Shown: one piece after another, positions 435 to 49,887 of the stretch
How the letters are laid out: every line of letters starts with the position of its first letter
How positions within the stretch are numbered: position 1 is the first letter of the stretch
From: a virus
Taxonomy: Duplodnaviria; Caudoviricetes
Virus record (IMG/VR): IMGVR_UViG_3300047388_000082
Coordinates: 1 to 50,432 of that record
Length of the DNA stretch: 50,432 nucleotides
Strand: one strand, 5' to 3'
Made by a program: the position numbers and the translations under genes
Notes under the pieces: model-generated
Told to the model about the DNA's origin: nothing
Seen by the model: the letters and a program-made list of their open reading frames with translations, nothing else
Database searches by the model: none

Positions 435-716
435 CTAGGATTCTAGACTCGGCCCATCGGGATTTGTTCTGTTTGTGTTCTCCCTCGTTACTCCGGAGAG
501 GTTGCGGGGGTACACCAACCCGAGTTCAACCTCGGTCACGTGGATGCTGTGATAGTCGTGGTGCCACGACCCGTGCCCGTAGGTGTAGGTCATTCCCTCT
601 GCTGCCTTCTTGAGGCCGGGGATCTCGTCGTAGTTGGCGGTGACTCCGATGAGGTGGCCTTCGCCACACCCGCAGTAGTAATCACCACACTCACCATGTA
701 GTACCCAGACCTTCAT
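435..716 (-). CDS. Hypothetical protein (93 aa)
   Basis: ATG overlapping an upstream stop; ends immediately beside the attP core. Confidence 0.6.
   Translation of the reverse strand: MKVWVLHGECGDYYCGCGEGHLIGVTANYDEIPGLKKAAEGMTYTYGHGSWHHDYHSIHVTEVELGLVYPRNLSGVTRENTNRTNPDGPSLES
462..482 (+). promoter_or_regulatory. Putative integrase arm-type site pair (right of attP core)
   Basis: ATTTGTTCTGTTTGTGTTCTC, direct repeat of 252-272. Confidence 0.7.
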
Positions 717-916
717 CTGATCGGCTCGAGCGTTCGGTAAATAGTGCGAGGAGGGACATCAAGCTCCACGACTACCTCCACGTGGTCGTATCCAGCCTCC
801 CGGTTCTCTGCGGCAGCACGCTTCTCAGCCCACTCCTTGTCCGCTGGACCGCACGTCAGGTAGATCTTCTCGGGCCGTCTTGATGAGTCCTTCTGCGTCG
901 ATAGTTTCTGCGTCAC
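713..916 (-). CDS. Small hypothetical protein overlapping the integrase 3' end
   Basis: GAGGAG then GTG at 916; stop coupled to the next ATG; start uncertain. Confidence 0.4.
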   Translation of the reverse strand: MTQKLSTQKDSSRRPEKIYLTCGPADKEWAEKRAAAENREAGYDHVEVVVELDVPPRTIYRTLEPIR

Positions 917-1931
917 GTAGCTCCTCGATGATGTTGACGTAGGTTGAGAGGAGCGTTTGGACCGTGTGGCCCATCTGCTCCGCAATGACTGCAGGGTTAC
1001 GCCCCTCAGCAAAGAGAAGAGAGGCGAACGTGTGTCGAAGATCATAAGGCCTTACACCGTCTGGGGCGGCTTCGGCCCAGCTTCGATTGCGCCAGTTACG
1101 GTAGTCCGTGTCCTTCCAGGGCTTCCCATCCCTTCGCGGGAATACCAGGCCGTCTCGCTTACCGGATGCCAGCTTCCATCCTCGTGCATCTCCCAGAGCG
1201 GGCCCGTAAGGCCTAACGACGCGACCATTCCCGGTCTTAGTCGGTCCCGTAGATCCAAAACTGACAGAGGCCCGGACACTGATGGTCTGGAGGCCGATGT
1301 CCTCCCACTCAAGTGCAAGAGCTTCACCAGGCCGTAGGCCCGCATACGCCAGAAGAGAAACCAGTGTGGCATCTCTTGGGGCCAGCTGAGCACGGACTGC
1401 TTCAACTTCGGCAGGAGTGAGAGGATGGGGCCTAGACTTTCTAGATCGGGCAGGTTTCTTCACCACCTTCGTAGGATTGATTCTCAGGCGCCGCCACTCC
1501 ACGGCCCGCTCGAGGACACCTTGGAGGAACGAGAGCGTCTTACGGGCTGTCTCATCCCCGTTAGCGTCGATGATGCGGTCGCGCATGTCGGCCACCAGAT
1601 CGGGTGTGATGCGGCGGAGCGTGGTCGTCCCCAGGGCCGGCTTCACGAAGCGAGCCTCCAGATCCTTGTACGCCCTGCGAGTGCTCTCGGCCAAGAAGCG
1701 GTTGCCATGGCGCTCCCACCACTCGGCCAAGAACTCGTTCAGTGTCTCTTGCCCAGCATCCAGCTCGGCGAGATCGCCCCGCCTCTTGGCGAGGTTCACC
1801 ATGGACTCGAACGCAACCGCGTCCTTGCGAAGGTCGAAGGTCTTGTTGCGATAGTTGCCTCGGGCTGAGGAGTCGTAGTAGTGCACGAGGTAGACCGTTC
1901 CCTTCTTGCGGTTGTGTCTCTGGATGCTCAT
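825..1931 (-). CDS. int: Tyrosine integrase
   Basis: AGGAGG RBS, MSIQRH start; AGLRPGEALAL (Arg I), YDLRHT, MGH and catalytic Tyr (STYVN). Confidence 0.95.
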   Translation of the reverse strand: MSIQRHNRKKGTVYLVHYYDSSARGNYRNKTFDLRKDAVAFESMVNLAKRRGDLAELDAGQETLNEFLAEWWERHGNRFLAESTRRAYKDLEARFVKPALGTTTLRRITPDLVADMRDRIIDANGDETARKTLSFLQGVLERAVEWRRLRINPTKVVKKPARSRKSRPHPLTPAEVEAVRAQLAPRDATLVSLLAYAGLRPGEALALEWEDIGLQTISVRASVSFGSTGPTKTGNGRVVRPYGPALGDARGWKLASGKRDGLVFPRRDGKPWKDTDYRNWRNRSWAEAAPDGVRPYDLRHTFASLLFAEGRNPAVIAEQMGHTVQTLLSTYVNIIEELRDAETIDAEGLIKTAREDLPDVRSSGQGVG

Positions 1932-1938
1932 GTTCCTC

Positions 1939-2154
1939 CTAGTAGATGTGGTAGTCGGAGGTAAGTACGGCGATCCCGTCGTTGATACCGGAGATCGCAC
2001 CGGCCAGTTCTTTGCGTGATTCGATGTCTTCCTTCATGAGGGCGTTCGTTACCTCCATGATCCTGCGGTTCTCGTCGATCCGTTCGTCGAGCCGCTCCAT
2101 CCGCTTCTCGTAGTCCGAGAGCTTCTCCTGGAGCAGACGCACAGCCACGTTCAT
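1939..2154 (-). CDS. Small coiled-coil protein
   Basis: ORF track; heptad-like sequence; coupled to neighbours. Confidence 0.7.
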   Translation of the reverse strand: MNVAVRLLQEKLSDYEKRMERLDERIDENRRIMEVTNALMKEDIESRKELAGAISGINDGIAVLTSDYHIY

Positions 2155-2420
2155 TTGTCCCTCAGTTCACGGACTGTGCGGAACTCGGGGAAAGTCAGGT
2201 CCCCGTCAGCAGCCGCCAGGAGGGCGGCGTTCTCCCACCCGATCGGCATGCGGTCATGCTTGTGAGAGAACTGCGAGTGCATCCGGCCATAGGCCAACCC
2301 ACGAGCTCGAGCTGCCTGCTCGTAGCTCTCGTGTCCCTCACAGGGTGAGAGGTGGTTGAAGGCGAACACCGTGCAGCCACACGGCAGTGTCTTGTTCCCG
2401 AGGTGGCCGTAGCCAGTCAA
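2151..2420 (-). CDS. Hypothetical protein
   Basis: ORF track; overlapping stop/start with neighbours. Confidence 0.6.
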   Translation of the reverse strand: MTGYGHLGNKTLPCGCTVFAFNHLSPCEGHESYEQAARARGLAYGRMHSQFSHKHDRMPIGWENAALLAAADGDLTFPEFRTVRELRDK

Positions 2421-3474: not shown

Positions 3475-4506
3475 TTAAGCCCCCGCTAGCGTCCAGCCTG
3501 GCGAAGTCACGTTCAAGTGACCGTGTTTGAGCCAGCTGTAGCCTTGCACCCACGTCGGGAAGGTAGTGGTCCGCTGGAGGTAAGCAGTCTTGTTCCTGTC
3601 GAACAAGCCTCCTCCTTCCGCCACGATCTTCTGCCCGTCCACGCCGTATCCTACGGCACAATGATGTGAATGGGCGGTTATGACGTTGGCATTGACCTTC
3701 GACGCGATCTTTCGAGCTGAGGTCAGCGGCACGCTGTTGTAGCTCTGAGGATGACAGACGTACCAGGGCGTACTTCCCTCAAACCCGTCCTCGATCCACA
3801 TATGGTCAAGGTTCGTGAAGACCATCCGGTCGACGGCCTCCGCTCCTAGACTGCCGAAGACCATCTTCATGGCCTCCTTGAACTGCATGGCAAAGCCCAG
3901 GGCCCTATGCAACCTAGCGTCATGGTTGCCCCAAATGTAGTAGATCGTGTCGAACGTTTCAAGCAGCACGTTCATGACGGCCATACCCTCGCGGAGTTCC
4001 CGCTCTAGGCCTGCGTTCTGCTGCTTGGGGTCGTACTGCGAGAGACTGTCGAAGTTGAAGAAGTCTCCCGAGATGAGGAGGGCGCTCAAGTCGTTCTCCC
4101 TCGCTGTCCGGATCATCGAGTTGACGAGGTTTGGATCGTACAACGGGATGTGCCAGTCAGCCGTGATCATGAGATCGCCTGTGTGAACCAGCGGCTTGTC
4201 GAGGACGAACTCGAAGCTGTCCCCGATCTCGATGGGCGTCGCCTGCCATTCGTATTCGATCGAGGCGAGGGCGCGGCGAACCGTGCTCTCATTGACCCCG
4301 AACCGAAGACCGATCTGGCGATTGGACTCGCCGGCATCTGCCCAGCGTGCGTAGATCTCAGGGGCGATCTTGCGTGTTGAAGTTGCTATCGTCTCGCTCC
4401 ATTCAGGTAGGTGGTCAGTGTCTCCAGTCCGGATCGGTACCGTCGTGACACAGCCATTGCGCTCACGCCGAGAAGAACCCCGGCAGTGCGTGTGGCGATT
4501 CCACAC
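3475..4506 (-). CDS. Calcineurin-like metallophosphoesterase with N-terminal HTH (true start probably near 4390)
   Basis: ADWH, GDFFN, GNHD and AHSHH motifs; SNRQIGLRFGVNESTVRRAL HTH. Confidence 0.85.
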   Translation of the reverse strand: MWNRHTHCRGSSRRERNGCVTTVPIRTGDTDHLPEWSETIATSTRKIAPEIYARWADAGESNRQIGLRFGVNESTVRRALASIEYEWQATPIEIGDSFEFVLDKPLVHTGDLMITADWHIPLYDPNLVNSMIRTARENDLSALLISGDFFNFDSLSQYDPKQQNAGLERELREGMAVMNVLLETFDTIYYIWGNHDARLHRALGFAMQFKEAMKMVFGSLGAEAVDRMVFTNLDHMWIEDGFEGSTPWYVCHPQSYNSVPLTSARKIASKVNANVITAHSHHCAVGYGVDGQKIVAEGGGLFDRNKTAYLQRTTTFPTWVQGYSWLKHGHLNVTSPGWTLAGA

Positions 4507-4700
4507 ATTCCACAGAGGAGCACGGCTTCGAGCTCCTTGCGGTTGAGTCGCTTGAGCGCAGTGTCTATGTCAGCGAGCACGAGAAGCGCGTAGAGGGAGC
4601 CACCAGGCACGGTGTCCTTCCTCTCACGACGCTCCTCGTACTCCTCGATCCAATCTCGGACTTCGGTGAGCCGGTAGTTAGCCTTCAACCGGGGCGCCAT
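4386..4700 (-). CDS. Sigma-70 region 4-like HTH protein
   Basis: DIDTALKRLNRKELEAVLL...TAGVLLGVSAMAVSRRYRSGLETL. Confidence 0.75.
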   Translation of the reverse strand: MAPRLKANYRLTEVRDWIEEYEERRERKDTVPGGSLYALLVLADIDTALKRLNRKELEAVLLCGMCGIATRTAGVLLGVSAMAVSRRYRSGLETLTTYLNGARR

Positions 4701-4926
4701 GTGTCATCCCCTGGTTGCGGCACTTCCGGACCCATGTCCTCATCGCGTTTCTCATGCCGGTGCCCGAAGGCTCCTTGCCGTTGAGCAACTGCTTGCAGAC
4801 GTACTCGGATGCTTCCTGCACCAGGTCGTCGTACTCAGCGTTGCCCTGTCCGCGAAAGCGGGAGGCGATTGCATGTACGCGTGGGAGATACTGTTCCACC
4901 CTCTCGTTTGAGAGGGCTACTGCCAC
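4678..4926 (-). CDS. Sigma-70 region 2-like protein
   Basis: VEQYLPRVHAIASRF...YDDLVQEA. Confidence 0.75.
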   Translation of the reverse strand: MAVALSNERVEQYLPRVHAIASRFRGQGNAEYDDLVQEASEYVCKQLLNGKEPSGTGMRNAMRTWVRKCRNQGMTHGAPVEG

Positions 4927-5573: not shown

Positions 5574-6023
5574 CTACGCCTCGGGCGCGGAATCGAACAT
5601 GCTCGGCTCTAGACTTTCAGCCGCTCCATCGATAACGATTTCCCTGATCCACCAGCCACCAGAGACCTCCACGAAGGCCATGCACTCGTAGAACTTCTCA
5701 TTGAGGAAGACCACAGTCTCGTCGTCGACGAACTTGTAGCCGTTCTCGAGGAGCTCGGCGTGCGTGACCCACAGGCGGTCATTGACGTCACGGTAGATCT
5801 TGGCCTGACTATCGGCCCGATGCGGGTAAGGAGACGGAGGCCCACCGGCCTCGTTCATCTTGTCGTGCATCGCGACAAGCTGCGTCCAGTCCTCATCCGG
5901 AGCCACCTTGTTGTTCGCCCAGGTGTCCTCCTCGCAGTCAGCCACTCGGCAGACAGCGACGAACGGCGGGTAGTTGATCCCGCACATAGAGCACCTGCGT
6001 GACTTGATCGTGTGCTCGTTCAT
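5574..6023 (-). CDS. Hypothetical protein with Zn-ribbon N-terminus
   Basis: MNEHTIKSRRCSMCGINYP...C; ATGA coupling. Confidence 0.7.
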   Translation of the reverse strand: MNEHTIKSRRCSMCGINYPPFVAVCRVADCEEDTWANNKVAPDEDWTQLVAMHDKMNEAGGPPSPYPHRADSQAKIYRDVNDRLWVTHAELLENGYKFVDDETVVFLNEKFYECMAFVEVSGGWWIREIVIDGAAESLEPSMFDSAPEA

Positions 6024-6109
6024 ACCCAACTCCACACCAGGGCTACAAGAATCCCAATGCCGATCGCGGGAATGATGAGTGCCATGAGGCAGTCGATAGC
6101 GACTCCCAT
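6020..6109 (-). CDS. 29-aa membrane peptide
   Basis: MGVAIDCLMALIIPAIGIGILVALVWSWV*; coupled at both ends. Confidence 0.55.
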   Translation of the reverse strand: MGVAIDCLMALIIPAIGIGILVALVWSWV

Positions 6110-6255
6110 CAGCCCTCCGTCCGGCGCCACTTGCGACACACGATGTAGACGCGGCCGTCAGTGACCTCGGCATGGAACGGCTTCCAGTTCTCCGGGAGTG
6201 CGATGTGCTCGCCTATCTTGTGAATGAACACCTGCACCTCGTGATAGCCGGTCAT
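6109..6255 (-). CDS. Small hypothetical protein (48 aa)
   Basis: MTGYHEVQVFIHK...WRRTEG*; TGATG coupling at both ends. Confidence 0.6.
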   Translation of the reverse strand: MTGYHEVQVFIHKIGEHIALPENWKPFHAEVTDGRVYIVCRKWRRTEG

Positions 6256-7565
6256 CAGAAGAGCACCTCCGGAGCGAGCCCGCCTACGAGGCGAACCCCA
6301 TCCTCGGTGTCCTTGATGGTCACGTTGATCACGTCACCCACAGGCTTGCGGCGGGACTTGTAGACGGCCATCGAGAGCTGGCAGATGCCAACACCCCGGA
6401 CGTCGAAGCCCCAGTCCACGCCTGCGCCAATGTCGCCTGACCCTGCCGTCCTCTTGAAGGAGGAGTTGGAGTCACCCTTGTTGGCGTGGTGGATCATGAT
6501 CACCGCAGCCCCGGTCTCCCGAGCCAGCGGCTTAATCGAGTCGTTGAACAACTTGTTCATCTCACCGGCCGAGTTCTCGTCGCCTGTGTGGATGCGTCTC
6601 ATTGCGTCGATGACGATGAGGGTGGGCTCGAACTCGAGCGCCTCTTCGATGAGCTCGTCCACGTTGCGATCCAGCCGGATGTTTTCGTTGTTGATGTAGC
6701 GGATGTTCTTGGCGTCCTCGGTGGTCATGCCCAGCTTGATCAGCCGGTCGTAGACCAGATCCTCGGGGTTCTCCTCGTCGATGTAGAGCACGCGGCCCTG
6801 CTCGAGCACCTTCTGCCCGATCCAGTCGCCACGGCCCTGAGCGATCGAGAGGGCCAGGTCCATCGTGAGCCAGGACTTACCGAGGTTGGGATCGCCCATA
6901 AGCAGGTGGACATCCCCTCGGCACATCAGCCCCTCTACCAACCAGCGGACGGGCGGCGGCTCTGCCGTCAGATCGAGAAGCTTGAAGCGGCTCTCGCTGA
7001 TGCCCTTGTGCTGAGTGAGGAGGCGGAGTGTGTCCAGGTCGTAGGTGTCGAAGAACTCACAGACGTCCTTGACGTCACGGGGGAGACGAATGCGTTGTGC
7101 CTTCCCTCGAAGGCTTGCCCGGATTTCCCGGTACGCATTGTCCACCCGGCCGACGACGTTGTAGTCCTTGTCGTTGTCCAGGATGACGAACACACGGTCG
7201 GTCTGGAGGAACGCGGATGACATCTCGTCACGCCACGACTCAATCCCGGACAGGCCCAGCACGCCTACACCATCTGCGCCGGCCTCCTGCCACAACCGCA
7301 TCGTGTCCGTCTCTCCTTCCACCAGGAAGCACACGGGCTTGTTCGCGTCCTGGCTGTTGAAGAGGTCGGGCTTCTGACCAGCGGTGAAGAAGAACTCTCT
7401 CTCGCCGTGTGGAATCCCCTTCCGCACCTTCTCACCGTTCGTGTACGGGAGGACGACAGCGCCATCCGTTCGCACACTCACGTTGAAGTGGGTAAGGGTC
7501 TCCGGTGTGATGCTCCTCTCTTTGAGGAACCACTCTGCCACGGCGGGCATGAGTTCCGACACCAC
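6255..7565 (-). CDS. Primase-helicase (TOPRIM + RecA-like/AAA helicase)
   Basis: LVEGETD and LDND TOPRIM motifs; Walker A GDPNLGKS; Walker B IVID; IHHANK. Confidence 0.92.
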   Translation of the reverse strand: MVSELMPAVAEWFLKERSITPETLTHFNVSVRTDGAVVLPYTNGEKVRKGIPHGEREFFFTAGQKPDLFNSQDANKPVCFLVEGETDTMRLWQEAGADGVGVLGLSGIESWRDEMSSAFLQTDRVFVILDNDKDYNVVGRVDNAYREIRASLRGKAQRIRLPRDVKDVCEFFDTYDLDTLRLLTQHKGISESRFKLLDLTAEPPPVRWLVEGLMCRGDVHLLMGDPNLGKSWLTMDLALSIAQGRGDWIGQKVLEQGRVLYIDEENPEDLVYDRLIKLGMTTEDAKNIRYINNENIRLDRNVDELIEEALEFEPTLIVIDAMRRIHTGDENSAGEMNKLFNDSIKPLARETGAAVIMIHHANKGDSNSSFKRTAGSGDIGAGVDWGFDVRGVGICQLSMAVYKSRRKPVGDVINVTIKDTEDGVRLVGGLAPEVLF

Positions 7566-7798
7566 TAAATTGCCGTGCCTAGACTGCCGTTCTCGTTGAA
7601 GATCTCAACAAGATCGCTGATCGTGTTGATGAACTTCTCCTGCTCACGAATCAGAACACGAAGTCTTTTGTTCGAGTCCTTGAGATCTTCGTTCGCTCGC
7701 TTGAGTCGAACGAGCACCTCGAAAGGCGTCTCGAGCTCGTGCACTTCGTGATAACGAATCGTACGACACAGTTTGCACTGCGGCTCATACTCGCTCAT
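7565..7798 (-). CDS. Hypothetical coiled-coil protein
   Basis: ORF track; CxxC followed by coiled coil. Confidence 0.65.
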   Translation of the reverse strand: MSEYEPQCKLCRTIRYHEVHELETPFEVLVRLKRANEDLKDSNKRLRVLIREQEKFINTISDLVEIFNENGSLGTAI

Positions 7799-8326: not shown

Positions 8327-8725
8327 TCACGGAGTACCAAGGCGATCCTTGACGTACTCCGCCCCGTTGAGGTTGAAGATGATCGCTGCAGCGTGGTCCT
8401 CGTCAGTGTCTCCCCTGAGCCACTGTTCCGAGTGTCGGGAGAAAGACTCCCTGAACCGCTCCAGCTCTTCCTGACCTGCGGCCAACATCCAGTTGCGCGG
8501 GTTGTGTTCCCACGCTCCCTTAGACAGGTGAACAGCCCAACGCTCGTACATCGGACCGTCCCTCGTCAGCAGGTAGTTGATCTTCCCCGTCGCCGAGCTC
8601 CGCTGCATGCCACCGTTGAACTTGACCAAGACCGCCTGGTTAGCAACCCAATCCCGCTCAGCTTGCTTTTCTTCCTCGGTCCATTCCGAGTACCTTTTCC
8701 CCCACGGTGAATTGAGGGTGTTCAT
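8327..8725 (-). CDS. dATP/dGTP diphosphohydrolase-like protein (DUF5664-type)
   Basis: GKINYLL...KGA...RNW...SFSRH...EDHAAAIIFN. Confidence 0.75.
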   Translation of the reverse strand: MNTLNSPWGKRYSEWTEEEKQAERDWVANQAVLVKFNGGMQRSSATGKINYLLTRDGPMYERWAVHLSKGAWEHNPRNWMLAAGQEELERFRESFSRHSEQWLRGDTDEDHAAAIIFNLNGAEYVKDRLGTP

Positions 8726-9021
8726 CGAATGAACTCGCCGGCATACGCGGCGATCGACGGGCAGTAGTGCTCCGTGCTTGAGTCACCCGCCATCTCAGCG
8801 ATCCGACCGAGTGCGGTGCGGAACAACTTGCAAGTGTCGAGCGAGTCATTTGCGAGCTTGGCGTAGCACATGGTGACCTCGCCTACGTCCTCCGCTTCGT
8901 AGTCCGTCGCACACGTGCATTCATGCGCGAACCCGTACGTTTCGATCCAGAGGTCTCGGTTTTCGTTCATCCTCTGCGTTGACAGCCTCAGCTGTTCCAG
9001 CGTCTCCGAGTCTACCGGCAT
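8722..9021 (-). CDS. Hypothetical protein
   Basis: AAGGAG RBS, MPVDSETLEQL start; overlaps the polymerase C-terminal tail. Confidence 0.6.
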   Translation of the reverse strand: MPVDSETLEQLRLSTQRMNENRDLWIETYGFAHECTCATDYEAEDVGEVTMCYAKLANDSLDTCKLFRTALGRIAEMAGDSSTEHYCPSIAAYAGEFIR

Positions 9022-9820
9022 AAGTCTCCTTTTCAGCCCAGTTGGTTGTCGTCCACTCCATGTCAGCCTCGATCGGGACGAGCTCGCTGACCGGCGCGTA
9101 GTCCATGAGGATGGGGAGCTGCTCCTGTAGATAGGGCAGCTCGTCCATAACCGCGTCGATGGCGAACTCGTCGTGCACGTAGTTGACAAGGTGGGACTGC
9201 ATCTTCATGGCCTTGAGATGCGCATGGATCTTCACCATGGCAACGCGAGCAAGATCCCCGCCTGTGCCTTGGATGATGTAGTTCAACGCCTTGTGGAGCT
9301 CGAGCACACCTGTCTTCTCGTTCCGTGGCTCGAGGTGCCTACCGAACAGCGTCGTCAGGTAGCCACGCTCATCCCATCGGCGTTGGATTGCGCCCGGTCC
9401 CTCGCCCTGACGGAAGCCGCCGTTGCGGAAGGGTGGGTTGTTGAGCAGCTTGATCGACGGCCAGGTCGCGAAGAACTGCGCCTGCTGAGCCTGGGCAACT
9501 TTTAGGGGGATGCCTAGATTCGCAGCAGCCTTGCCTGCGCCGCCGCCGTAGATGGTCAGGAAGTTCCAGGTCTTGCCAATGTCCCGCTCATCGTCAGTGA
9601 TCACACTCTTGCCGAGGATGGCCTTGGCGGTTTCCTCATGCAGGTCGTCCCCGCGTCGGAACACTTCTGCCATGCCCTCGTCGCCAATGGTGTGGGCGAT
9701 GTAGAACGCGAGCAGCCTGTACTCCAGCTGCTTGTAGTCGAAGAAGAGCAGAGCATCCTGCTTGGGCACAAAGGCCCGCTTGATGACCTTATCTCCCTTC
9801 GGGATGTTCTGGAAGTTCAC
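8921..9820 (-). CDS. polA: DNA polymerase family A, C-terminal (palm/fingers) part
   Basis: NFQNIP, motif A DYKQLEYR, motif B GKTWNFLTIYG, motif C VHDE. Confidence 0.95.
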   Translation of the reverse strand: MNFQNIPKGDKVIKRAFVPKQDALLFFDYKQLEYRLLAFYIAHTIGDEGMAEVFRRGDDLHEETAKAILGKSVITDDERDIGKTWNFLTIYGGGAGKAAANLGIPLKVAQAQQAQFFATWPSIKLLNNPPFRNGGFRQGEGPGAIQRRWDERGYLTTLFGRHLEPRNEKTGVLELHKALNYIIQGTGGDLARVAMVKIHAHLKAMKMQSHLVNYVHDEFAIDAVMDELPYLQEQLPILMDYAPVSELVPIEADMEWTTTNWAEKETYAGRLGDAGTAEAVNAEDERKPRPLDRNVRVRA

Positions 9821-10077
9821 TAACGAGCGGCGATCAGCTGAAAGATCGCGACGTCCAACTCACAAGCCAACTGCTTGGCCTCATCAAGCGTCAGGTCTTT
9901 CACGAAGTCCTTGTAGCCACCTCCGTAAGACCGATCGTCGAAGATCGCCTTCGGGAACGTCAGCTTGATCTTCTTCGTGTGAACACTCGCGACCCCCACG
10001 GCAGAACGCGATGGCTCTGTTAGCGGAATCGCTCCCTTCATCGAGAGCTCCTTCTTCTTTTTCTTCTTGAGGCCCAT
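9820..10077 (-). CDS. Small basic protein between the polymerase halves
   Basis: MGLKKKKKKE...; 1-nt stop/start overlaps on both sides. Confidence 0.65.
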   Translation of the reverse strand: MGLKKKKKKELSMKGAIPLTEPSRSAVGVASVHTKKIKLTFPKAIFDDRSYGGGYKDFVKDLTLDEAKQLACELDVAIFQLIAAR

Positions 10078-10376
10078 TACGGCCGCACGTTCTTGAGGCT
10101 GCTGGCAAAGGTCGGCCGCTTCTCCAACGTGGAGACACGGGCGTCCAGATCGTTCGCAGCGTCAACCAGCTCGGAGATCCCGAGGTAGAGCATCTCCAGG
10201 ATGTCGGCTAGACTCGGCTCCTCGACTTCCGAAGCCTGCTCAGCTAGATCGAGCGCCTCGTAGGCGTCGTCGAGCTCCTGTACTGCAGGTGCCTCGTAGT
10301 CAGTCACGTCGCCGGGGTCAGCGTCCACCAGGCTCAACGTGCGGACAGGCGTGTTGTCGATCGGTGTTTCGTCCAC
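10077..10376 (-). CDS. Small acidic protein between the polymerase halves
   Basis: D/E-rich; 1-nt stop/start overlaps on both sides. Confidence 0.7.
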   Translation of the reverse strand: MDETPIDNTPVRTLSLVDADPGDVTDYEAPAVQELDDAYEALDLAEQASEVEEPSLADILEMLYLGISELVDAANDLDARVSTLEKRPTFASSLKNVRP

Positions 10377-11380
10377 TATCCCTCACTCTCTCCGGACGAC
10401 ATGCGCCCGGTCTTGGTTCCGTGTTGGCGGAAGTTCGGATGGATGATCCCGTCCTCCTGCTCATTCAGCATCGGCTGCAGGTAGGTGCCGTGCATCTTTC
10501 GTGTTGAGCGTAGGTGCAGGATCTCTCGGGCTAGGTCGTGGTCGACCTGAGACAACGTGTCCTTGTCTGTTCCTTCGAGGGTGATGCCCTCTTCCTCGAA
10601 CCTCGCAAGGATCTGCTGCCAACTACCGGGGTTGAACTCCTCCGTTGTTAGATCGCGGATACGGAGCTCGGTGCGCACGGCTTCTTTTCCGTACGCCTTG
10701 GCGGTGGCGGAGAGGTAGTCCATATCCAACGCCATGCCAGCACCCTCCATGTCTAGGAGGGCCAGGGTGACCAGCTTCTCGTGGGCATACAAAGCCACTA
10801 GTTCCGGCCAGTCCTGCAGCTTCGGGTGGAAGAGGTCAAAGAGTCCGAGGGTCAGGATCACGTCCTGGATCGCGTAGGGGATGACGACCTCACGTGGAAG
10901 CACGTGGTAGCCGTCCTCCTTCCGCAGCTTGAGCTTGCGTCGTACTGCGGCAAGCTCCTCGTCCTCCGTAGTCTCAACCCCGAGGTGTGTGCGGGCCAGA
11001 CTCTTGAGTCCCTTCTTCTGGTGCGCGTCTAGCAGGTGAGCCAACGTCTCCGTATCTTCAAGCCGATCGGCGGTGATCGCCTCTCGATCCAAGATGCCGG
11101 CCTGCACGAGCTTCTGTAGGTCGAACTTGATGTTGTGTCCGATCCACGTAGGCGTTGCTTGCAGGATCGCGCTCACCATCCACGAGCTGTCGTAGTCCAC
11201 CAGCTCGAAGTAGTGCCCTACTACGTCCCCGTCATCGCGGTCCCACGCGATCGTCGTACAGAAAGGAGTGTCGAAGTAGCCCAGTCCAGTGGTCTCTGTA
11301 TCGACCGCAATGATGTTGGGTTGGTCATTCAACCAGGCGTCGAACCCGGTCTCAGCTAAGGCCTGCAGCGAGCAGTCCAC
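10376..11380 (-). CDS. polA: DNA polymerase family A, N-terminal part (3'-5' exonuclease + thumb)
   Basis: ExoI VDTETTGL, ExoII HNIKFD, ExoIII YAIQD; ends TKTGRMSSGESEG*; GAGGAG RBS before GTG at 11380. Confidence 0.92.
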   Translation of the reverse strand: MDCSLQALAETGFDAWLNDQPNIIAVDTETTGLGYFDTPFCTTIAWDRDDGDVVGHYFELVDYDSSWMVSAILQATPTWIGHNIKFDLQKLVQAGILDREAITADRLEDTETLAHLLDAHQKKGLKSLARTHLGVETTEDEELAAVRRKLKLRKEDGYHVLPREVVIPYAIQDVILTLGLFDLFHPKLQDWPELVALYAHEKLVTLALLDMEGAGMALDMDYLSATAKAYGKEAVRTELRIRDLTTEEFNPGSWQQILARFEEEGITLEGTDKDTLSQVDHDLAREILHLRSTRKMHGTYLQPMLNEQEDGIIHPNFRQHGTKTGRMSSGESEG

Positions 11381-12017
11381 GGAAGAACTCCTCGTCTCCG
11401 GTCTTGAGGTCATCCAGCGTGACGGAGTAGGCATCCGCAATAGCTTGCGGGTCAGCCTCTACTCCACCGTCGATGGCGAGCTGCGTAACACGTGCCTTGA
11501 GGTCCGCAAGCGGATCGGCGTTGCGGCCGTCGTGCTCCGGTGCCTCCTTGTCGTACAGGCAGAGTCCGAACTGGTCCCCGAGCGATGCGAATGCACGCTT
11601 GAGGGCGTCGGTCACGGCCTCCTTGCTGGCGAGCTCGTGCGGGGTAATGCGGCTCATGTTGTACTCCTGAGCATCCCCGTAGCCCACGTCGCTGTAGGTG
11701 GCGTACCCTCTGGTGTCCCGGAAGATCGAACCATCCAGGGGATACGGTCCTACAGACACTTCGACGATGGCCCTGTATCCAACGCGCACCCCGGTCTTAC
11801 CGTTGGAGTTGGTGAACTCCTCTTCACCTAGACAAGACAGATCCGCCACCCGATACCCCCAGCCTCCATAGCCGAAGATCTCGTTCGCACGTTGCTTGAC
11901 GTCCCAGCCCTCCAGGTAGGAGAACTCTTTACCTCCGCCGCCCGACCTCTTGCTGACACGCTGCGGATCCAGCGGAGCGTCGAGTGCTTCGGAGATACCT
12001 TGATCAAATGCTGACAA
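11352..12017 (-). CDS. Rad52/Sak-type single-strand annealing protein
   Basis: YLEGWDVKQRANEIFGYGGW and KEAVTDALKRAFASLGDQFGLCLYDK. Confidence 0.93.
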   Translation of the reverse strand: MSAFDQGISEALDAPLDPQRVSKRSGGGGKEFSYLEGWDVKQRANEIFGYGGWGYRVADLSCLGEEEFTNSNGKTGVRVGYRAIVEVSVGPYPLDGSIFRDTRGYATYSDVGYGDAQEYNMSRITPHELASKEAVTDALKRAFASLGDQFGLCLYDKEAPEHDGRNADPLADLKARVTQLAIDGGVEADPQAIADAYSVTLDDLKTGDEEFFRGLLAAGLS

Positions 12018-18634: not shown

Positions 18635-18642
18635 TCATCCTC

Positions 18643-19745: not shown

Positions 19746-19797
19746 AAGAGATTCGCCCTCCTTCGGGTTGTTGATGAACCGCCGTACTTGCAGCGGA

Positions 19798-20765: not shown

Positions 20766-20790
20766 CGTACTTCCTTTCGAGTCGGGTTGG

Positions 20791-23202: not shown

Positions 23203-23207
23203 GACAC

Positions 23208-43087: not shown

Positions 43088-46000
43088 GTGGCGTCAAGTA
43101 GTTTCTCTCCGATTCAGCCGTTCCAGTTCACGGCAACGGTCCCTAGGAGTGCGAGCCCGTTTGACTACAAGGCGCCACCGCTTCCTTCTGCACCGAGTGG
43201 TCCTACTCTGAACCAGATGTTGGCTCGGATCACTGCCGCTCACTCCAAACCTCACCGCTCCTTCCTCGGGAATGTGGAGCACGGAGCGAAACTGGCTATC
43301 GACCCGGTGGCCTGGACGTTCGACAAGCTCGAGCGCCCCGCCTATGCCGTCGCTAACGCGGCGGACAAGGGTCTCCAGTACCACCACGTTGACCTCGGTG
43401 CTGCACTACACGGCGCACGCGAGGGATTCATGGGTCGCGAGAAGACCAACTTCGGCGCGATCATGGCTCACCGTGGGATCCTCAACAACCACAAGTATCT
43501 CCGTGGCGCTCTCGGCCTAGCCGCTGACGTCGCGACTGACCCACTCTCCTACACAGGGGCCGGCGTTGCCCGCAAGGCTGCGACAGAGGCTCTGGACAGT
43601 GCTAGCAAGGTTGTCCTTCAAGAGGGAACCGGCTACACAGCCAAGGAGTCTGAGCGTGCAGCTCGCATCGCCAAACTCTCTGATGCACATAAGACTCTGA
43701 GTGCGGGCGGTGAGCAGTTCCAACACCGCGCTGCCCTGGCGAAGTTGGGCGTCGAGCTCAACAGCAAGGTTGCTAGCGGTCAGGCACTTACCGAGGTCGA
43801 TCGCGCTGGTATGAACGTCGCGCGGAACACGGCCAAGGCAGAGATGAAGGCTTTCGACAAGAAGTACTTGAAGATCCGGATCGGTCCCAACTCACGGGGC
43901 GGCATGCGGACCCCTGTCCCGCTGGTAAGCAAGAAGGTCGGCGAGATGGGCATCCCTGGTCTCTCGAAGGTCGCATCAAGTCTCGGCAAGGCATTCAAGC
44001 CTGGCTATGAGGATCCGATCCTTCATGCCCAGCTGCTCGGACGTCGGCACCAAGGTGAGCGTCTTGCCAAGGATTACTTCGGCTTTATCCGTCACAGGTT
44101 CAAGGGACTGGAGAAGCTCAAGCCTGAGGACCAGCGTGCTGTCCTTCACTTCTTCGAGAAGCCGAAAGGCGGCGCTAAGGCTGTCATTCGGAAAGGCGAC
44201 CACTACGTTCTCAATCCGAAGCACATTGAGCGGGCCCGTAAGGCGGGATTCTCGGAAGCGCAACTCGAGTTCGTCCAGGCGATGCATGACACGGCGGAGC
44301 ATTTCGCTGGCAAGCATGCTGAGTACGGTCTCGACATCGCCCACCTCGGGGCGCAAGGAAAACTGTACGTCCCACACATCGTCCAGAAAACTGGCGAGGG
44401 GCTGACGGACGCCCAGCGCAATCTCCTGTCTAAACGCGGGTTTGTCAAAAACCGTGCTCATGACTTGTCGGTCGCCGAGCTCCATGCCCTTCACGAAGGT
44501 GGACGGCTTCCACACGACATCGAGACCAACCCCTTCAATCTCCTGACGATCCATGCTAGGTCGGTGGCTAACCAGCACGCGGATCAGCTGATGGTCAATT
44601 ACATGCGTGATGCCGTAGGTGTCCCAACTAGACTCGTGGACAAGGAAGCTCTCGCAAAGGCGCAGATGACTCGTGCCTCTCTCGAGCACCAGATCGCAGC
44701 GCACCCCGCATTCGACGAGGTAGCACACACGAAGGCGATCAAGGACCTCAAGGTTGCGCACGAGGCTCGCGTCCACCACGAATACAGTGAGACGCTTGCC
44801 CGGAACAACGCCGCGATCAAGGACCACCTCGAGAACCGAGAGTGGAAGCAAACCACACTTGCAACGGTCAAACGTATCAGTCAAAGATCGGTAGCCGCGC
44901 AGGCGAAGTTGTCCGAGGATGTTAAGGCGATCCGCGAAGAGCGGAACCCTGGCCTCCTCAAGGATCTGAACCCGCTCAAGGCCTCGAAGGTCGAGCAGGG
45001 GAAGAACCTTTCCACGCTGGAGAAGCGTCTCTCTACCGCCATGAGGGCGGAGAAGGACGTGATGAAGGGGAGCAAGAACCCCGCCGTCAACTCCGAGACC
45101 ATGCGGACGATCGAGAACAAGACCCTGCGCGACGAGCACGGACACAAGTACGCGTTCCCACACCAGGTGGCCGACAGTCTAGAGCGGCTGCACAAGGTGA
45201 TGGACGGCGACGAGGCAACCCTCAACGCCTTCTCCAACGGGTACCGCAAGTGGCTCGGGAAGTGGAAGGTTGCGGTGACGACGGTGAACCCGTCCTACGG
45301 CGTCCGCAACACCCTCTCGGACTACTGGAACATGTACCTGTCCGGAGTCCCGCTCCACGCCATGCCCGTCTACGGGGCCAAGGCTGCACACCTCATGTCG
45401 CTCGCGGCTAAGGGCGACAAGCTGGCGGTCTCCAAGATGCTCGACGCCTACGACTCAGGCATCCTCTCGGGCCTCTTCTCAGGCGACATCAAGCAGGTAG
45501 CGAACTACCTCGAGCAGGGGAGCACCGTCAAGACCCTGGCTCAGAAGGGGCGGTTCATCAAGGCTGCCTCGAAGATGTCACAGGAGATCAACGCGCACCG
45601 TGAGAACTGGGGCCGGCTCACACACTACCTCTACCGGCTCGACCAAGGCAAGAGCGTGTCGGATGCGGCTGACCTGGTAAAGGAAGCCCACTTCGACTAC
45701 GAGGACCTGACGCCCTTCGAGCAGAAGCGGATGAAGGTGATCGCACCGTTCTACACGTGGTCACGGAAGAACATCCCGTTCCAGATCAAGGCGCTCGTGG
45801 AGCACCCCGGTCAGATGGCCGCCTTCCCGCAGTTCGGGTCGGAGGCTGCACAGGCCAGCGGTGCCAAGCCTGGGGACATCGTTCCGCCCTACATGGAGCA
45901 GAACATGGCCCTCAAGTTCGGCGGGAAGTACTTCAACCCAATGATCGGCATCACGGACCTACAGAACGCAGTCCACCCGATGCAGCTGGCGAGCAACCTC

Positions 46001-48152: not shown

Positions 48153-48159
48153 GAGGAAC

Positions 48160-48330
48160 ATGAAAGTCAAGCTCGCCAAGGTCGTCCACGCGGTTACCGC
48201 CGCTGTCACGTCCCCCACTGCTGTCACCAAGGAGAAGTCCCTCGCGGTCTTCATCGGCGTCCGGATCGCCCTGAGTCTAGGCGCGTCCGCTGCCCTGGTT
48301 GAGGCCGTCGCCAAGATCATCGGTTCGTAA
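48160..48330 (+). CDS. Small hydrophobic protein, holin candidate
   Basis: AGGAGG RBS; amphipathic/TM helices; precedes the lysin candidate. Confidence 0.55.
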   Translation: MKVKLAKVVHAVTAAVTSPTAVTKEKSLAVFIGVRIALSLGASAALVEAVAKIIGS

Positions 48331-48331
48331 C

Positions 48332-48976
48332 TTGGGCGCCATTCGCGGGCGTCTCAAGACGCTCATGACGGAGACGGTCGCGGACGCCCACAACTGGACG
48401 TACCTCGCCGTACGACCCCTCCCGCTGCCCGCTACGTGGCATCCGGGACAGAAGGTCGTCTCCGACTGCTCCTGGGGAGCTCGCCTGCTGCACAAGTGGG
48501 CCGGTGGACCCGACCCCATGCACAACGGCTGGGCCCCTTGGGGCAACAGCTCGACCATCGCGGCCACCAACCGGCACGCCGACTCCCCCAGTGAACTCCG
48601 GGTGGGCGATTTCGTGACCTTCGGTCCTGGCGGAGACGAGCATGCCACCACGGTCTACACGCCGGCCTCTGACCCGGTGCTGTGGAGCGACGGGCATCAG
48701 GGAGCGCCGAACTTCTACCGGCTCTCTCAGGATCCCCGCGAGCACCAGCTCCGCTTTAGCGATCTCCCTGACGAGGCACCCGTGCCCCTGACTCCTGCGC
48801 AGAAGTTGCGCGCGAAGACGGGCTACTGGTCGTGGCTCGCCTGGAAGCTCGGTGAGGGCGACTGGGCGCACTACAAGCCTGCTGATCCGCTGGTCAGGCC
48901 CAACGTGCCCAAGCTCATCCCGATGACCTGGTGGAGGCGCTGGATCCAGTACAACCTGAACCGCAAGAAGGCGTAA
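48332..48976 (+). CDS. Endolysin candidate (divergent NlpC/P60-like cysteine peptidase)
   Basis: SDCSW...GNSSTI...LRVGDFVTFG...EHAT; start uncertain (TTG 48332 or ATG 48365). Confidence 0.65.
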   Translation: MGAIRGRLKTLMTETVADAHNWTYLAVRPLPLPATWHPGQKVVSDCSWGARLLHKWAGGPDPMHNGWAPWGNSSTIAATNRHADSPSELRVGDFVTFGPGGDEHATTVYTPASDPVLWSDGHQGAPNFYRLSQDPREHQLRFSDLPDEAPVPLTPAQKLRAKTGYWSWLAWKLGEGDWAHYKPADPLVRPNVPKLIPMTWWRRWIQYNLNRKKA

Positions 48977-49887
48977 TGGGCCTCTTCAAAAGCATCCTCA
49001 AGGATGTCTCGCTGGCCCAGAACCCGATCGGCAATCTCAAGACACTCAAGAACACGCTGCACGATGCGGAGGGGCTGGTTAACCCCATGAACTACTACCG
49101 CACCGGCAAGGAAGCCGTCACCAATCCTGTTGGCCTCGCCAAGGGAATCGGGAACAGCTACCTCGACTTGGGGCGGCATCCGCTCCGGGCTCTGCAGCAC
49201 CCGCTATCGACGGGACTGATGATTGCTCCGGGTGTGGGCCAGCTTGGCAAGCTCGGAATCCTGGGTAAGGCTGGTGAGGCGGCAGATGTCGTCGCTCCCG
49301 CAGCTTCCAGGGAGGAGCTGTTCCGGAGAGCGGCCACTCGAGCTCGTGGGCCGGCGCATACCACGCCTGGTGTCCACACGTTCTCGACCACCGATGGTCA
49401 GGCCTCCGCAGTCCGGCAGAGTCTAGACACCCCGACCCAGTGGGGCGTCAACCCCGCTAAGGGCGAAGCTGCTTCGGCAGCGGCGGTCAGGGCTGGTCTC
49501 GACAAGCCGACCCAGTGGCGCATCAATAAGGAACCCGAGTCCACACACTGGACTAAGGATCCGGCGCACAAGGGGTACGAGGAAGATCCCATCCTGAATG
49601 GGCACGACCTCGGTGATCTCCATCCGGGCATCGAGCACAATGAGAACCCGTTCGACTTCGCAGGTCAGTCCCAGAACATCTTCTCTCCGAAGCCCCGCAA
49701 CCCAGCGGGCGCCAGTCTAGAGAGAGGGAATCTGGTTCCCTTCCATCTCCCGAAGCACAACCCGATGGAAGAGGGTAAGCCGATCGACCCGAAGGACCTG
49801 GTTCGCAGGATCCTCGCTGATCGGATCGGCACGCAGTACACAGGCGGCAGGAAGCGCGGCCGTCCTGGGTACGACAACATGAACTAA
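48976..49887 (+). CDS. Hypothetical protein
   Basis: TAATG coupling; internal repeat ASAVR..LD.PTQW. Confidence 0.7.
   Translation: MGLFKSILKDVSLAQNPIGNLKTLKNTLHDAEGLVNPMNYYRTGKEAVTNPVGLAKGIGNSYLDLGRHPLRALQHPLSTGLMIAPGVGQLGKLGILGKAGEAADVVAPAASREELFRRAATRARGPAHTTPGVHTFSTTDGQASAVRQSLDTPTQWGVNPAKGEAASAAAVRAGLDKPTQWRINKEPESTHWTKDPAHKGYEEDPILNGHDLGDLHPGIEHNENPFDFAGQSQNIFSPKPRNPAGASLERGNLVPFHLPKHNPMEEGKPIDPKDLVRRILADRIGTQYTGGRKRGRPGYDNMN

Follow-up and report, generated by a model that had tools for sequence, protein, structure and literature searches.

The heptamer AGTCTAG is a real, strongly selected and unexplained signal in the phage genome studied here, and known signals do not fully account for it. 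The window, which is the entire 50,432-nucleotide stretch of DNA that was analysed, contains 37 copies, compared with 4.44 expected by chance (sd 2.26, largest 11). None of 100 dinucleotide-preserving shuffles reached 37. Of these, 36 read along the sense strand in a pair of gene arms that diverge, and AGTCTAG is the 7-mer with the greatest strand polarity in the genome. An initial annotation had proposed a selected directional signal, and that core inference receives strong support from the dinucleotide and synonymous shuffles, from the exactness of the word, and from its amino-acid cost. Each of the 37 coordinates it listed is an exact match, and the genome search returned exactly 1 opposite copy against 36 sense copies, as it had claimed. 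Its G+C estimate of ~62% gives way to 60.5% from base counts.

The left arm carries 20 exact copies, spanning 443 to 21234, on the minus strand, which is the sense strand of that arm. These copies start at 443, 1432, 2757, 3846, 5070, 5609, 7579, 10208, 12348, 13302, 16820, 17797, 18892, 19631, 19960, 20063, 20126, 20228, 20741, and 21228. All are in frame as AGT-CTA-G except 1432, which falls in the other open frame of the integrase gene (825-2000), and 19960, which is non-coding. At 2757 and at 20228 two genes overlap, and the copy is in frame in one of them and off-frame in the other. The right arm carries 16 exact copies on the plus, again sense, strand from 24677 to 49720, starting at 24677, 24711, 26909, 31425, 32112, 33027, 34327, 36372, 37279, 38090, 42345, 45176, 47081, 48274, 49420, and 49714. 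The sole copy in this arm that is not in frame is 24677, whose TAG is the stop codon of the ORF at 24369-24683; the next start codon follows 9 nt on. The lone antisense copy (44628 to 44634, minus strand) lies within a 1143-aa plus-strand gene. Together, the off-pattern copies (1432, 24677, 44628, and 19960) number 4, compared with about 1.2 by chance. Coding scores reveal no counter-oriented ORF with coding potential in either arm, and thus AGTCTAG orientation equals sense throughout. The phage is temperate, as it encodes an integrase, and it is an uncultivated soil phage.

Copies are densest at the head of the left arm, where 7 lie in 1.6 kb (19631 to 21234, minus strand; P = 0.03). A four-Cys zinc-ribbon ORF of 86 aa (19977-20237), as read from its translation, holds 3 of the 7. 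The initial annotation had placed a density peak at 19.6-21.2 kb; this peak is genuine, although its 7 copies in 1.7 kb make it a modest one. Between the innermost copies, a 3.4-kb central zone (21235 to 24676) carries no AGTCTAG on either strand and is flanked by those 7 copies on one side and by 2 copies within 41 bp on the other. The zone contains two small genes that coding scores identify as real (21420-21668 and 21752-22252) and a 2.1-kb non-coding control region (22253 to 24368), at which the polarity flips. In the control region, TGCATG repeats coincide with a strong local GC skew at 23.6-23.8 kb, an AT-rich stretch occupies 23.8-24.1 kb, the sequence GTACTTAAGTACTTAGTAC at 23965-23983 is palindromic and operator-like, and a T-arm-like element lies on the minus strand near 22.6 kb. 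On a circular map, the arms converge at 49888 to 50432 and on into 1-434; the last plus-strand gene (49993-50391) is real, with a homologue in genome G001. The first 45 bases of the contig recur at its end with one mismatch. Thus, the assembly is circular or permuted, and its ends are arbitrary.

The signal withstands a codon-shuffled null of the kind that the initial annotation had proposed. Specifically, shuffling synonymous codons within genes (2000 shuffles, 59 ORFs) yields 1.34 sense copies (maximum 6) compared with 31 observed, and 0.24 antisense copies compared with 1 observed. In a refined set of 64 ORFs, 33 copies occupy the AGT-CTA-G frame, compared with 1.79 expected. The observed sense count in ORFs therefore varies with the gene set, from 31 to 33 for 1.3-1.8 expected (antisense, 1 for 0.17-0.24 expected), and the enrichment is about 20-fold. 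The word is also exact: all 21 single-mismatch variants are at background, with 0-5 sense-oriented copies. The one-mismatch NGTCTAG copies to which the initial annotation had drawn attention belong to this background (CGTCTAG, 4 sense and 3 antisense; GGTCTAG, 2 and 0; TGTCTAG, 4 and 3). The flanks show partial constraint at two positions only, and the base at -1 is never T.

Nearly all copies encode Ser-Leu, which raises the issue of whether AGTCTAG is a by-product of coding, arising from a favoured codon pair or from selection for the peptide Ser-Leu-Gly/Glu/Asp. There is a parallel: TCCGGGT, a superficially alike polar word in AT-rich relatives, corresponds to Pro-Gly codons at homologous positions. 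The synonymous shuffle, however, recovers only the 1.3-1.8 copies given above, and AGT-CTA specifies 27 of the 91 Ser-Leu pairs when codon frequencies predict about 0.7 (hand arithmetic). G comes next in all 27, while Ser-Leu pairs that precede a non-G codon use AGT-CTA in 0 of 36 cases. Because AGT-CTA occurs only before G, the word spans a codon boundary. The two codons had been called rare but are only moderately so (AGT, 93 of 891 Ser codons; CTA, 92 of 1234 Leu codons); the motif contains 27 of these AGT and 27 of these CTA codons. Outside the motif, S-L-[GEDAV] tripeptides number 28 of 55 total, close to the roughly 32 expected from a hand estimate based on amino-acid composition. Furthermore, Ser-Leu is unconserved: relatives have it at homologous positions in 17 of 151 aligned cases, 13 of these at a single portal site, and of 3 sites compared with the closest portal homologue (79% identity), 1 is Ser-Leu in both proteins. 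An origin in codon pairing or peptide selection, unsupported by the shuffle, the boundary-crossing G, and the unconserved Ser-Leu, is extremely improbable.

Most AGTCTAG copies arose through amino-acid replacements, the phage altering its own proteins, and the copies are young. The initial annotation had proposed a check of related phages for the motif; it is missing from relatives, among them one complete genome of the same architecture. The signal is, by this comparison, specific to this phage lineage.

AGTCTAG is concentrated in genes. Specifically, 36 copies lie in 44.4 kb of ORFs and 1 in 6.0 kb of non-coding DNA, where 0.55 would be expected by chance. Tested on the arms alone, the coding restriction gives P = 0.19; the non-coding pieces in the arms are short, and other signals may occupy them. 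The AGT-CTA-G phase accounts for 33 copies, compared with 2 that are off-frame in every covering ORF, and this phase needs two rarer codons. A BLOSUM-cost model predicts an opportunity ratio of just 2-4.5:1 in favour of the in-frame phase (P = 8e-5 to 0.016). Tolerance of Ser-Leu-Gly/Glu/Asp by proteins could be an alternative source of the frame bias. In-frame copies occur in 28 of 64 genes, where a null proportional to gene length gives 22.9 +/- 2.1 (P = 0.014). Exactly one such copy is found in 25 genes, a spread of approximately one per gene across both arms. Taken singly, each of the three statistics that point to the translated region is modest (P ranges with the null used, 8e-5 to 0.19). 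Coding-only enrichment, the making of copies by amino-acid replacement, and the lack of the word in relatives had all been missed by the initial annotation.

We tentatively favour the possibility that AGTCTAG is tied to gene expression, its reader being a lineage-specific factor that acts on the transcript or the translated region. Pointing in this direction are the sense-strand placement (36 of 37), the frame (33 versus 2), the ORF-only enrichment, the one-per-gene spread, and the amino-acid cost. AGTCTAG is a positively selected cis-acting mark on the sense strand of phage genes, and on this reading it would be recognised as AGU-CUA-G on the transcript, inside translated regions, by a sequence-specific reader peculiar to the lineage. 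Such a reader would give the phage a simultaneous handle on nearly all of its own cistrons, whether for post-transcriptional silencing or immunity, for timed decay, or for protection, and it would spare host messages, given how rarely the word occurs in bacteria. We infer, rather than observe, the level of action (RNA or translation rather than DNA), the identity of the reader, and the effect of binding. In one concrete version, the reader could be a ribosome-associated endoribonuclease or RNA-binding protein; some endoribonucleases and RNA-binding proteins read an in-frame codon plus the following base. Pfam, PHROGs, NCBIfam, PDB-sequence, and atlas searches with about 70 ORFs returned no RNase or RNA-binding candidate, and the literature search turned up no earlier example of such an in-frame heptamer signal. 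The same-tRNA variant AGC-CTA-G is at background (2 sense, 2 antisense), as are the G:U-pairing variants (sense:antisense, GGTCTAG 2:0, AGTCTGG 5:1, AGTTTAG 0:0). Thus, what is read is neither tRNA identity nor a target of wobble-tolerant RNA pairing. A flanking-stem test revealed no local RNA structure at the copies (P = 0.87). A narrower proposal, unlikely in our estimation, is that each cistron is self-tagged with an in-frame AGU-CUA-G, a word that host genes would hardly contain, for a reader sensitive to frame, such as a ribosome-associated nuclease or binder. If true, that reader could silence, time, or protect every phage message together, providing a post-transcriptional counterpart of stoperator immunity. 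To our knowledge, self-marking of this kind is undescribed for any virus.

The orientation of the copies with transcription also suggests a mechanism at the DNA level, one that we consider possible but rather unlikely. Here, AGTCTAG would be a stoperator-like roadblock: a repressor-type protein would bind the duplex word asymmetrically and block RNA polymerase from one side. The two lytic arms would thereby be silenced in the lysogen, and the control region would stay free of sites. An account of Cluster A mycobacteriophages (PMC6550527) describes 20-30 transcription-oriented stoperator sites, asymmetric and 13-14 bp long, with a drifting, variation-tolerant consensus; the phage immunity repressor binds them and blocks elongation, and the early lytic promoter has the same motif for its true operator. 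Analogously, the phage studied here is temperate, its 36 sense sites align with transcription and flip where the arms meet beside the integrase, and its 3.4-kb control zone is site-free with the densest sites on its flanks. AGTCTAG is lineage-specific, as repressor–operator pairs are, and its rarity in bacterial genomes means that few decoys would compete with a 7-bp site. Among known logics, the stoperator-like site listed in the initial annotation comes nearest, but what defines that family is not found here. The variable 13-14 bp of a stoperator contrast with an exact 7 bp in AGTCTAG, and the promoter and control region, where stoperator systems use the same motif as an operator, has none. 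The palindromic, operator-like sequence of that region is a different one, and G001, which lacks AGTCTAG, has a sequence of this kind too. Moreover, non-coding DNA, a cheap location for a DNA site, holds only 1 copy, the frame bias is left unexplained, and searches of Pfam, PHROGs, NCBIfam, and PDB sequences yielded no repressor candidate.

The polarity is likewise what a central origin predicts, and AGTCTAG could be where a primase prefers to start on the lagging-strand template, with replication running bidirectionally from an origin in the central non-coding region, a reading that we judge improbable. The core of the T7 primase (gene 4 protein) site is 5'-GTC-3', which AGTCTAG contains, and in both arms the word lies on the strand that a 5'-3' helicase-primase would track outward. 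The centre is origin-like in its repeats, AT-rich stretch, and local GC skew, and the absence of T at -1 fits as well. The phage primase-helicase (6255-7565) has Toprim and helicase domains in a T7-type architecture and no zinc finger of its own; a 77-aa ORF with a CxxC-x5-HxxH pattern (7565 to 7798, minus strand), predicted to bind zinc, overlaps the start of its gene. This ORF is a candidate separate zinc-binding module, and a lead only. G001, the genome without AGTCTAG, has a Cys4 ORF in the same position, and the two ORFs are not homologous. Against a primase site, known primases read about 3 bases, and our literature search found no report of genome-wide enrichment of primase words. The spacing of AGTCTAG is not more regular than random (CV 0.83 versus 0.96, not significant), and transcription accounts equally well for the skews at four-fold degenerate sites. 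The primase site put forward in the initial annotation also supplies no rationale for an enrichment restricted to ORFs and to a single frame.

An exact, short, asymmetric word could also mark a strand-specific nick or a base modification in virion DNA, and localised single-strand nicks are known in T5-like and other nicked phage genomes. Genes for glutamine amidotransferase, two amidoligases, and ATP-grasp enzymes are present in the phage, and G001 lacks most of them; of the enzyme cluster at 14.4-19.6 kb, G001 has only the ATP-grasp gene. However, nicking or modification gives no reason for sense-strand orientation or ORF restriction, and no nuclease or methylase of such specificity was found. 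We regard this explanation as very improbable. Two further candidates were rejected. One is a promoter for the ECF-like sigma factor encoded by two overlapping minus-strand ORFs (4386 to 4926; region 2 at 4678-4926, region 4 at 4386-4700). The pattern sought was a -10-like element before genes with a conserved -35 element about 16-17 bp upstream; no upstream position is conserved beyond codon periodicity, and the copies lie mid-gene. The sigma factor itself is context; it is conserved in G001, which is without AGTCTAG. The other is a programmed frameshift heptamer. Such heptamers follow the slippery pattern X XXY YYZ, which allows tRNA re-pairing; AGT-CTA-G / A-GTC-TAG, read directly, lacks the repeated bases of the slippery type.

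Exactness, density, and polarity together recall Chi. A Chi-like word would attenuate a helicase-nuclease (a host enzyme of the RecBCD/AddAB type, or a phage or defence enzyme) to protect phage DNA or to promote recombination. According to a Chi survey (PMC12315714), phage LLS has 23 Chi sites, 1 per 1.86 kb, with orientation 20:3, phage MD8 has orientation 32:0, sites in such phages "come and go" and are patchy among relatives, and class B phages often have many Chi. LLS and MD8 provide a close quantitative precedent. The phage studied here encodes a nuclease and an annealing protein, and no RecBCD inhibitor was recognised among its annotated ORFs, the absence of a match being weak evidence; it thereby resembles class B of the survey (PMC12315714). 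AGTCTAG shares with Chi the exact short word, high density, and strong polarity in an inhibitor-less phage. A host Chi, however, must abound on the host chromosome. No excess of AGTCTAG was found in 375 bacterial genomes (5 MAGs, 250 more genomes of one phylum, and 120 more of another), and the word is generally rarer there than a same-composition control. At most it reaches about 1 per 9.6 kb, and in the genome concerned the control word is twice as frequent. The same genomes bear on KOPS/SRS, the FtsK/SpoIIIE-orienting origin-to-terminus words: none of the 375 has an AGTCTAG excess. Because AGTCTAG is rare in all of them, mimicry of a host Chi or KOPS is unlikely. Chi is active in one orientation with respect to the end at which the enzyme enters the DNA, and Chi-rich phages keep one orientation genome-wide, whereas AGTCTAG flips twice on the circular map, and it shows no enrichment in non-coding DNA. 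Finally, given the arbitrary contig ends, the initial annotation's idea of a Chi-like site protecting both genome ends loses its geometric basis. A Chi-like role is improbable.

Compared with known systems, AGTCTAG resembles T7 primase words in being a strand-specific lagging-strand template word that includes GTC, in a phage with Toprim and helicase architecture; unlike those words of about 3 nt, it shows a coding restriction and a frame bias that would be unexpected there. With the Chi-rich phages (E. coli LLS, P. aeruginosa MD8, and P1) it shares an exact 7-8-nt word in 20-50 copies, about 1 per 1.4-1.9 kb, with extreme orientation bias, site turnover, and patchiness among related phages. 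In those phages the word is the host's abundant Chi, in a single orientation and clustered at the entry end (PMC12315714), whereas AGTCTAG is rare in the bacteria searched, flips with the gene arms, and is ORF-confined. The Cluster A stoperators of L5, Bxb1, and relatives are likewise tens of asymmetric sites of lineage-specific sequence in temperate phage genomes of roughly 50 kb, oriented near-uniformly with transcription and flipping at the integrase between convergent arms. AGTCTAG differs from them in being an exact 7 nt, located in ORFs in one frame, and missing from the control region; no repressor homologue was found for it, and same-architecture relatives are wholly without such sites. 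Haemophilus and Neisseria DNA uptake sequences are chromosomal, serve transformation, and consist of a short exact word at about 1 per kb. They occupy ORFs, in frames that tolerate them and where the protein is poorly conserved, with amino-acid changes as the cost. AGTCTAG is, like them, an exact short word placed in ORFs at amino-acid cost, but unlike them, it is oriented with transcription.

The heptamer AGTCTAG is strongly overrepresented in this phage and is oriented with the genes of each arm. There are 20 copies on the minus strand (443-21228), 16 on the plus strand (24677-49714), and one antisense copy (44628). Each of the 37 coordinates listed in the initial annotation is exact, and its assertions of an excess over chance and of polarity are borne out. 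Specifically, dinucleotide shuffles produce 4.4 copies, with 0 of 100 shuffles reaching 37, and the codon-shuffled null proposed there (2000 within-gene synonymous shuffles) yields 1.34 copies on the coding strand, versus 31 observed. With the arms oriented by their genes, AGTCTAG is the most strand-polar 7-mer in the genome (36:1), and it reaches z = 20-23 in a scan of all 7-mers against the synonymous-shuffle null; that it is a mere by-product of coding is scarcely credible. The 7-mer CGAGCTC (count 38+38) is explained by the favored codons GAG-CTC. The AGTCTAG signal is also exact: each of the 21 single-mismatch variants has five or fewer sense-oriented copies. Its flanks are weakly constrained, the preceding base never being T and the following base being a purine in 31 of 37 copies. 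A density peak proposed earlier at 19.6-21.2 kb holds as a cluster of seven copies (P = 0.03), albeit a modest one, and spacing is otherwise random: there is no regular spacing, and neither a density gradient along the arms nor nearness to start codons is significant. The right arm opens with two copies 34 bp apart. Overall, the phage carries one copy per 1.36 kb. Among the papers listed by our literature search on AGTCTAG or a comparable phenomenon, none was relevant. The signal is clean, being exact and 20-fold enriched, and it is fit for direct reporter and binding tests.

The genome comprises the entire 50,432-base assembly of an uncultivated phage from a soil metagenome. The analysis rests on this single assembled genome and on our own ORF calls. 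One DNA sequencing run, probably its source, covers it at approximately 10x (word depth) and shows the phage itself alone, with neither near relatives nor physical ends; no RNA run is listed as containing it. The left arm (roughly 0.4-22.3 kb, minus strand) encodes an integrase, an ECF-like sigma factor (two ORFs), a primase-helicase, a family A DNA polymerase (two ORFs), a Rad52-type annealing protein, a Cas4/RecB-like nuclease, an ATP-grasp enzyme, a glutamine amidotransferase, and two amidoligases. The right arm (24.4-50.4 kb, plus strand) encodes the terminase, a P22/SU10-type portal, capsid, adaptor, and tail proteins, and an NlpC/P60 protein. The initial 45 bases are found again, with a single mismatch, at the end of the contig; therefore, the assembly is circular or permuted, and where it starts and stops is arbitrary. 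Thus, an earlier proposal that AGTCTAG protects both genome ends has no basis. On the circular map, the arms diverge at ~22.3-24.4 kb and converge at ~49.9-50.4 kb, adjoining the integrase.

Several genes merit separate mention, some of them with counterparts in G001, a complete related genome. The sigma factor (4386-4926, minus) consists of two ORFs in different frames with a 23-nt overlap, carrying region 2 and then region 4. Possible explanations are a factor made in two pieces, a programmed frameshift, and an assembly error; a homolog of the region-2 part is present in G001. The polymerase (8921-11440, minus) is split into one ORF for the exonuclease and the N-terminal part of the polymerase (10376-11440) and another for the C-terminal part (8921-9820). 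Two small ORFs of unknown function separate the halves, and the G001 polymerase is likewise two ORFs. A cluster at 14447-19588 (minus) specifies the ATP-grasp (RimK-like) enzyme, the class II glutamine amidotransferase, and the two amidoligase-family proteins. Of these genes, the one for ATP-grasp alone is matched in G001, and the question arises whether such clusters serve peptide or base modification in phages. An ORF at 8327-8725 (minus) matches the N-terminal domain of a dATP/dGTP diphosphohydrolase (MazZ-like, E = 3.5e-7). None of the scanned ORFs resembles PurZ, so nothing points to a 2-aminoadenine genome. A transposase-type helix-turn-helix protein (HTH_Tnp_1, HTH_29; 33332-33865, plus) lies between the portal and scaffold-like genes, and it is kept at the same site in G001 (36% identity), which marks it as a member of the structural module and not an insertion sequence. 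TAG is the commonest stop codon among the 64 ORFs (27, with TAA at 20 and TGA at 17), an unusual leading stop at 60% G+C.

Between the arms, ~2.1 kb (22253-24368) has no convincing ORFs. This region contains four to five TGCATG repeats at 23.6-23.8 kb, where local GC skew rises to +0.33, a stretch of 45% G+C at 23.8-24.1 kb containing GTACTTAAGTACTTAGTAC, and a terminator-like hairpin at 24086-24113. It is likely an origin and/or a divergent promoter region, and G001 has two regulatory regions in which similar GTAC-N6-GTAC palindromes are concentrated. Two tRNA T-arm-like elements lie in non-coding DNA on the minus strand: GAGGGTTCGATTCCCTC at ~22596-22620, and GCGGGTTCGATCCCCGC, followed by an acceptor-like GTGGTCCA, at ~19815-19840. 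ARAGORN and Rfam call nothing at either one, and no tRNA, tmRNA, or Rfam family is found in the window. These elements may represent either the cores of attachment sites that match a host tRNA gene or tRNA-like RNAs that have degenerated.

The placement of the heptamer within genes is distinctive. In the refined list of 64 ORFs, 33 copies are in frame as AGT-CTA-G, two of which (2757 and 20228) are off-frame in an overlapping gene. Two copies, 1432 and 24677, are off-frame in every covering ORF, the TAG of 24677 being a stop codon, and the other off-pattern copies are the antisense 44628 and the non-coding 19960. Chance predicts about 0.5, 0.17, and 0.55 copies for the off-frame, antisense, and non-coding classes, respectively; therefore, the selected class is essentially the in-frame copies. 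AGT-CTA encodes 27 of 91 Ser-Leu pairs. The next codon starts with G in all 27, and AGT-CTA is used in none of the 36 Ser-Leu pairs that precede another base. Thus, the word spans the codon boundary, which rules out a codon-pair habit or a peptide motif as its cause. A substitution-cost model gives the AGT-CTA-G frame 2-4.5 times the opportunities of the other open frame, and the 33:2 split is unlikely under that model (P = 8e-5 to 0.016). Non-coding DNA (6.0 kb, 12% of the genome) harbors a single copy, a scarcity with P = 0.055 for all non-coding DNA and P = 0.19 for the arms alone under uniform density. Copies are spread over 28 genes, versus 22.9 +/- 2.1 predicted from length (P = 0.014), with exactly one copy in 25 genes and none in the most conserved enzymes. 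A promoter for the phage sigma factor is ruled out, as the copies sit in the middle of genes and have no conserved element upstream. Membership in a repeat-element or RNA family and identity as a slippery frameshift site were likewise rejected, and no RNA hairpin surrounds the copies.

Alignment with relatives indicates that the copies were created recently by protein changes. Across 52 related loci (tblastn), Ser-Leu accounts for 17 of the 151 aligned dipeptides, 13 of which sit at a single portal position; other aligned positions hold Pro-Met, Lys-Tyr, gaps, and the like. In the nearest known portal homolog (79% identity, protein only), SLE, GLA, and AQV stand where the window has SLE, SLA, and SLD. 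Ser-Leu-[GEDAV] tripeptides lacking the word number 28, close to the roughly 32 that we estimated by hand from amino-acid composition, so that, by this reckoning, the motif copies come in addition.

The signal is missing from relatives. Searches returned no near-identical phage records, and single-protein scans of viral and bacterial contigs returned no close relatives. Hundreds of uncultivated relatives of the terminase and portal occur on ~50-kb contigs, and the relatives available as DNA have at most 59% terminase identity; the closest portal homologs (P0122-P0126) are 69-79% identical. In 16 related loci (10-21 kb), the top 7-mer has z <= 7.8 under the synonymous-shuffle null, and four whole related records hold 3-5 unpolarized copies of AGTCTAG. 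G001 (49.9 kb, 59% G+C) has the same two-arm architecture and shares, at 34-55% identity, sigma-like, Metallophos-HTH, primase-helicase, polymerase, Cas4-like, and ATP-grasp genes; its top k-mer (k = 6-8) has z = 4.7-5.8, versus 19-26 in the window. The terminal repeat of G001 was set aside as proof of physical ends because its length is exactly 127 bp, which we take to be a common assembler k-mer size. The initial annotation would have taken similar counts after codon shuffling as refuting a selected signal, or else an absence of effect of synonymous recoding together with non-conservation in relatives: the codon-shuffled counts are far lower, and the relatives do lack the enrichment. TCCGGGT and TAGTGTT were rejected as analogous polar words in relatives, representing favored codons at homologous positions or failing the synonymous-shuffle null. 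Such apparent polar words of AT-rich relatives are a useful negative control for the method. When all viral contigs were screened for AGTCTAG in three spaced copies of like orientation, 56 matches emerged, and the top ones, which we inspected, are all tandem or low-complexity repeats. Three unrelated low-GC IMG/VR contigs (L224, L239, and L202) carry dozens of one-strand copies in long low-complexity repeat genes, as the antisense of acidic Leu/Asp/Ser/Glu repeats, and are not connected with the phenomenon described here. In each of two related metagenome loci (L094 and L098), one strand carries 20 copies of GGTTCGA, a pattern suggestive of tRNA gene arrays.

To act as Chi or KOPS, a word has to be plentiful on the chromosome of the host. 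Our search for the host via prophage relatives gave MAG assignments spread across unrelated phyla, and we sampled five MAGs and two phyla. In the five MAGs, from five groups, AGTCTAG occurs 10-98 times versus 64-829 for a control word with its letters reversed. Among 251 genomes of one phylum, the densest has about one copy per 19 kb, and AGTCTAG slightly exceeds the control in only a few (e.g., 73 vs 47). In a second phylum (121 genomes), density peaks at one copy per 9.6 kb, in a genome where the control word is twice as frequent. Twelve genomes are flagged as unpublished; the result is independent of them. The poverty of the sampled genomes in AGTCTAG weakens the case for mimicry of a host word, which is unlikely.

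What might read the word? Frame bias, restriction to ORFs despite the cost to proteins, and one-per-gene spread are three independent observations, each modest alone, that together point to reading during expression and not of bare DNA. Tentatively, AGTCTAG would be read on the transcript or the translated region. Its orientation, its absence from the control region, and its rarity in bacteria fit an RNA-level reader and a DNA roadblock equally well, and a stoperator-like roadblock is a somewhat doubtful but serious contender. The polarity would also fit readings coupled to replication (a primase site, or a Chi-like site at forks) if the origin is central. These readings predict neither coding restriction nor frame bias; a primase site is unlikely, and a Chi-like attenuator slightly more so. 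No counter-oriented gene exists within either arm to separate transcription from replication, and skews at four-fold degenerate sites likewise fail to do so. A nick or modification signal is very improbable, and the remaining probability belongs to something that we have not considered. Homology searches named no reader. Candidates are small ORFs for which BLASTP gives no match in G001, and several carry predicted zinc-binding motifs. Small ORFs specific to this lineage include 5574-6173, 7565-7798, 19977-20237, 21420-21668, 21752-22252, and 24369-24683; the one at 7565-7798 encodes a 77-aa putative zinc protein, adjoining the primase-helicase gene (6255-7565). A 583-aa ORF was dismissed, as the atlas suggests a beta-strand-rich virion-type protein.

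Chi, KOPS, and stoperators are genome-wide polar words, each of which revealed a machine that reads DNA directionally. The ~33 exact in-frame copies of AGTCTAG cost the phage protein sequence and codon quality. Relatives with shared architecture and replication genes have none; therefore, the reader would be recent, specific, and under strong selection. If AGTCTAG acts on expression, it would provide a new viral means of addressing all of the phage's own genes while leaving those of the host untouched; it would also constitute a compact orthogonal control element. A role in replication or recombination would make it the first word of this type not borrowed from a host.

Two known systems invite comparison. 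According to PMC12315714, Chi-rich phages carry 23-32 copies, one per 1.4-1.9 kb, with extreme polarity, turnover, and a patchy distribution among relatives, making them the best quantitative match; they differ in that the word belongs to the host, runs in a single direction genome-wide, and is clustered at the entry end. Stoperators, as described in PMC6550527, are the best architectural match, with 20-30 asymmetric sites that are oriented with transcription and flip at the integrase. They differ in being 13-14 bp long, in including promoter operators, and in drifting with the repressor among relatives, whereas the control region here has no AGTCTAG and instead has another palindromic operator-like sequence, of a kind also present in G001. 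As far as the contig and the sampled genomes show, AGTCTAG has the defining features of neither Chi nor stoperators: it shares their logic, not their membership.
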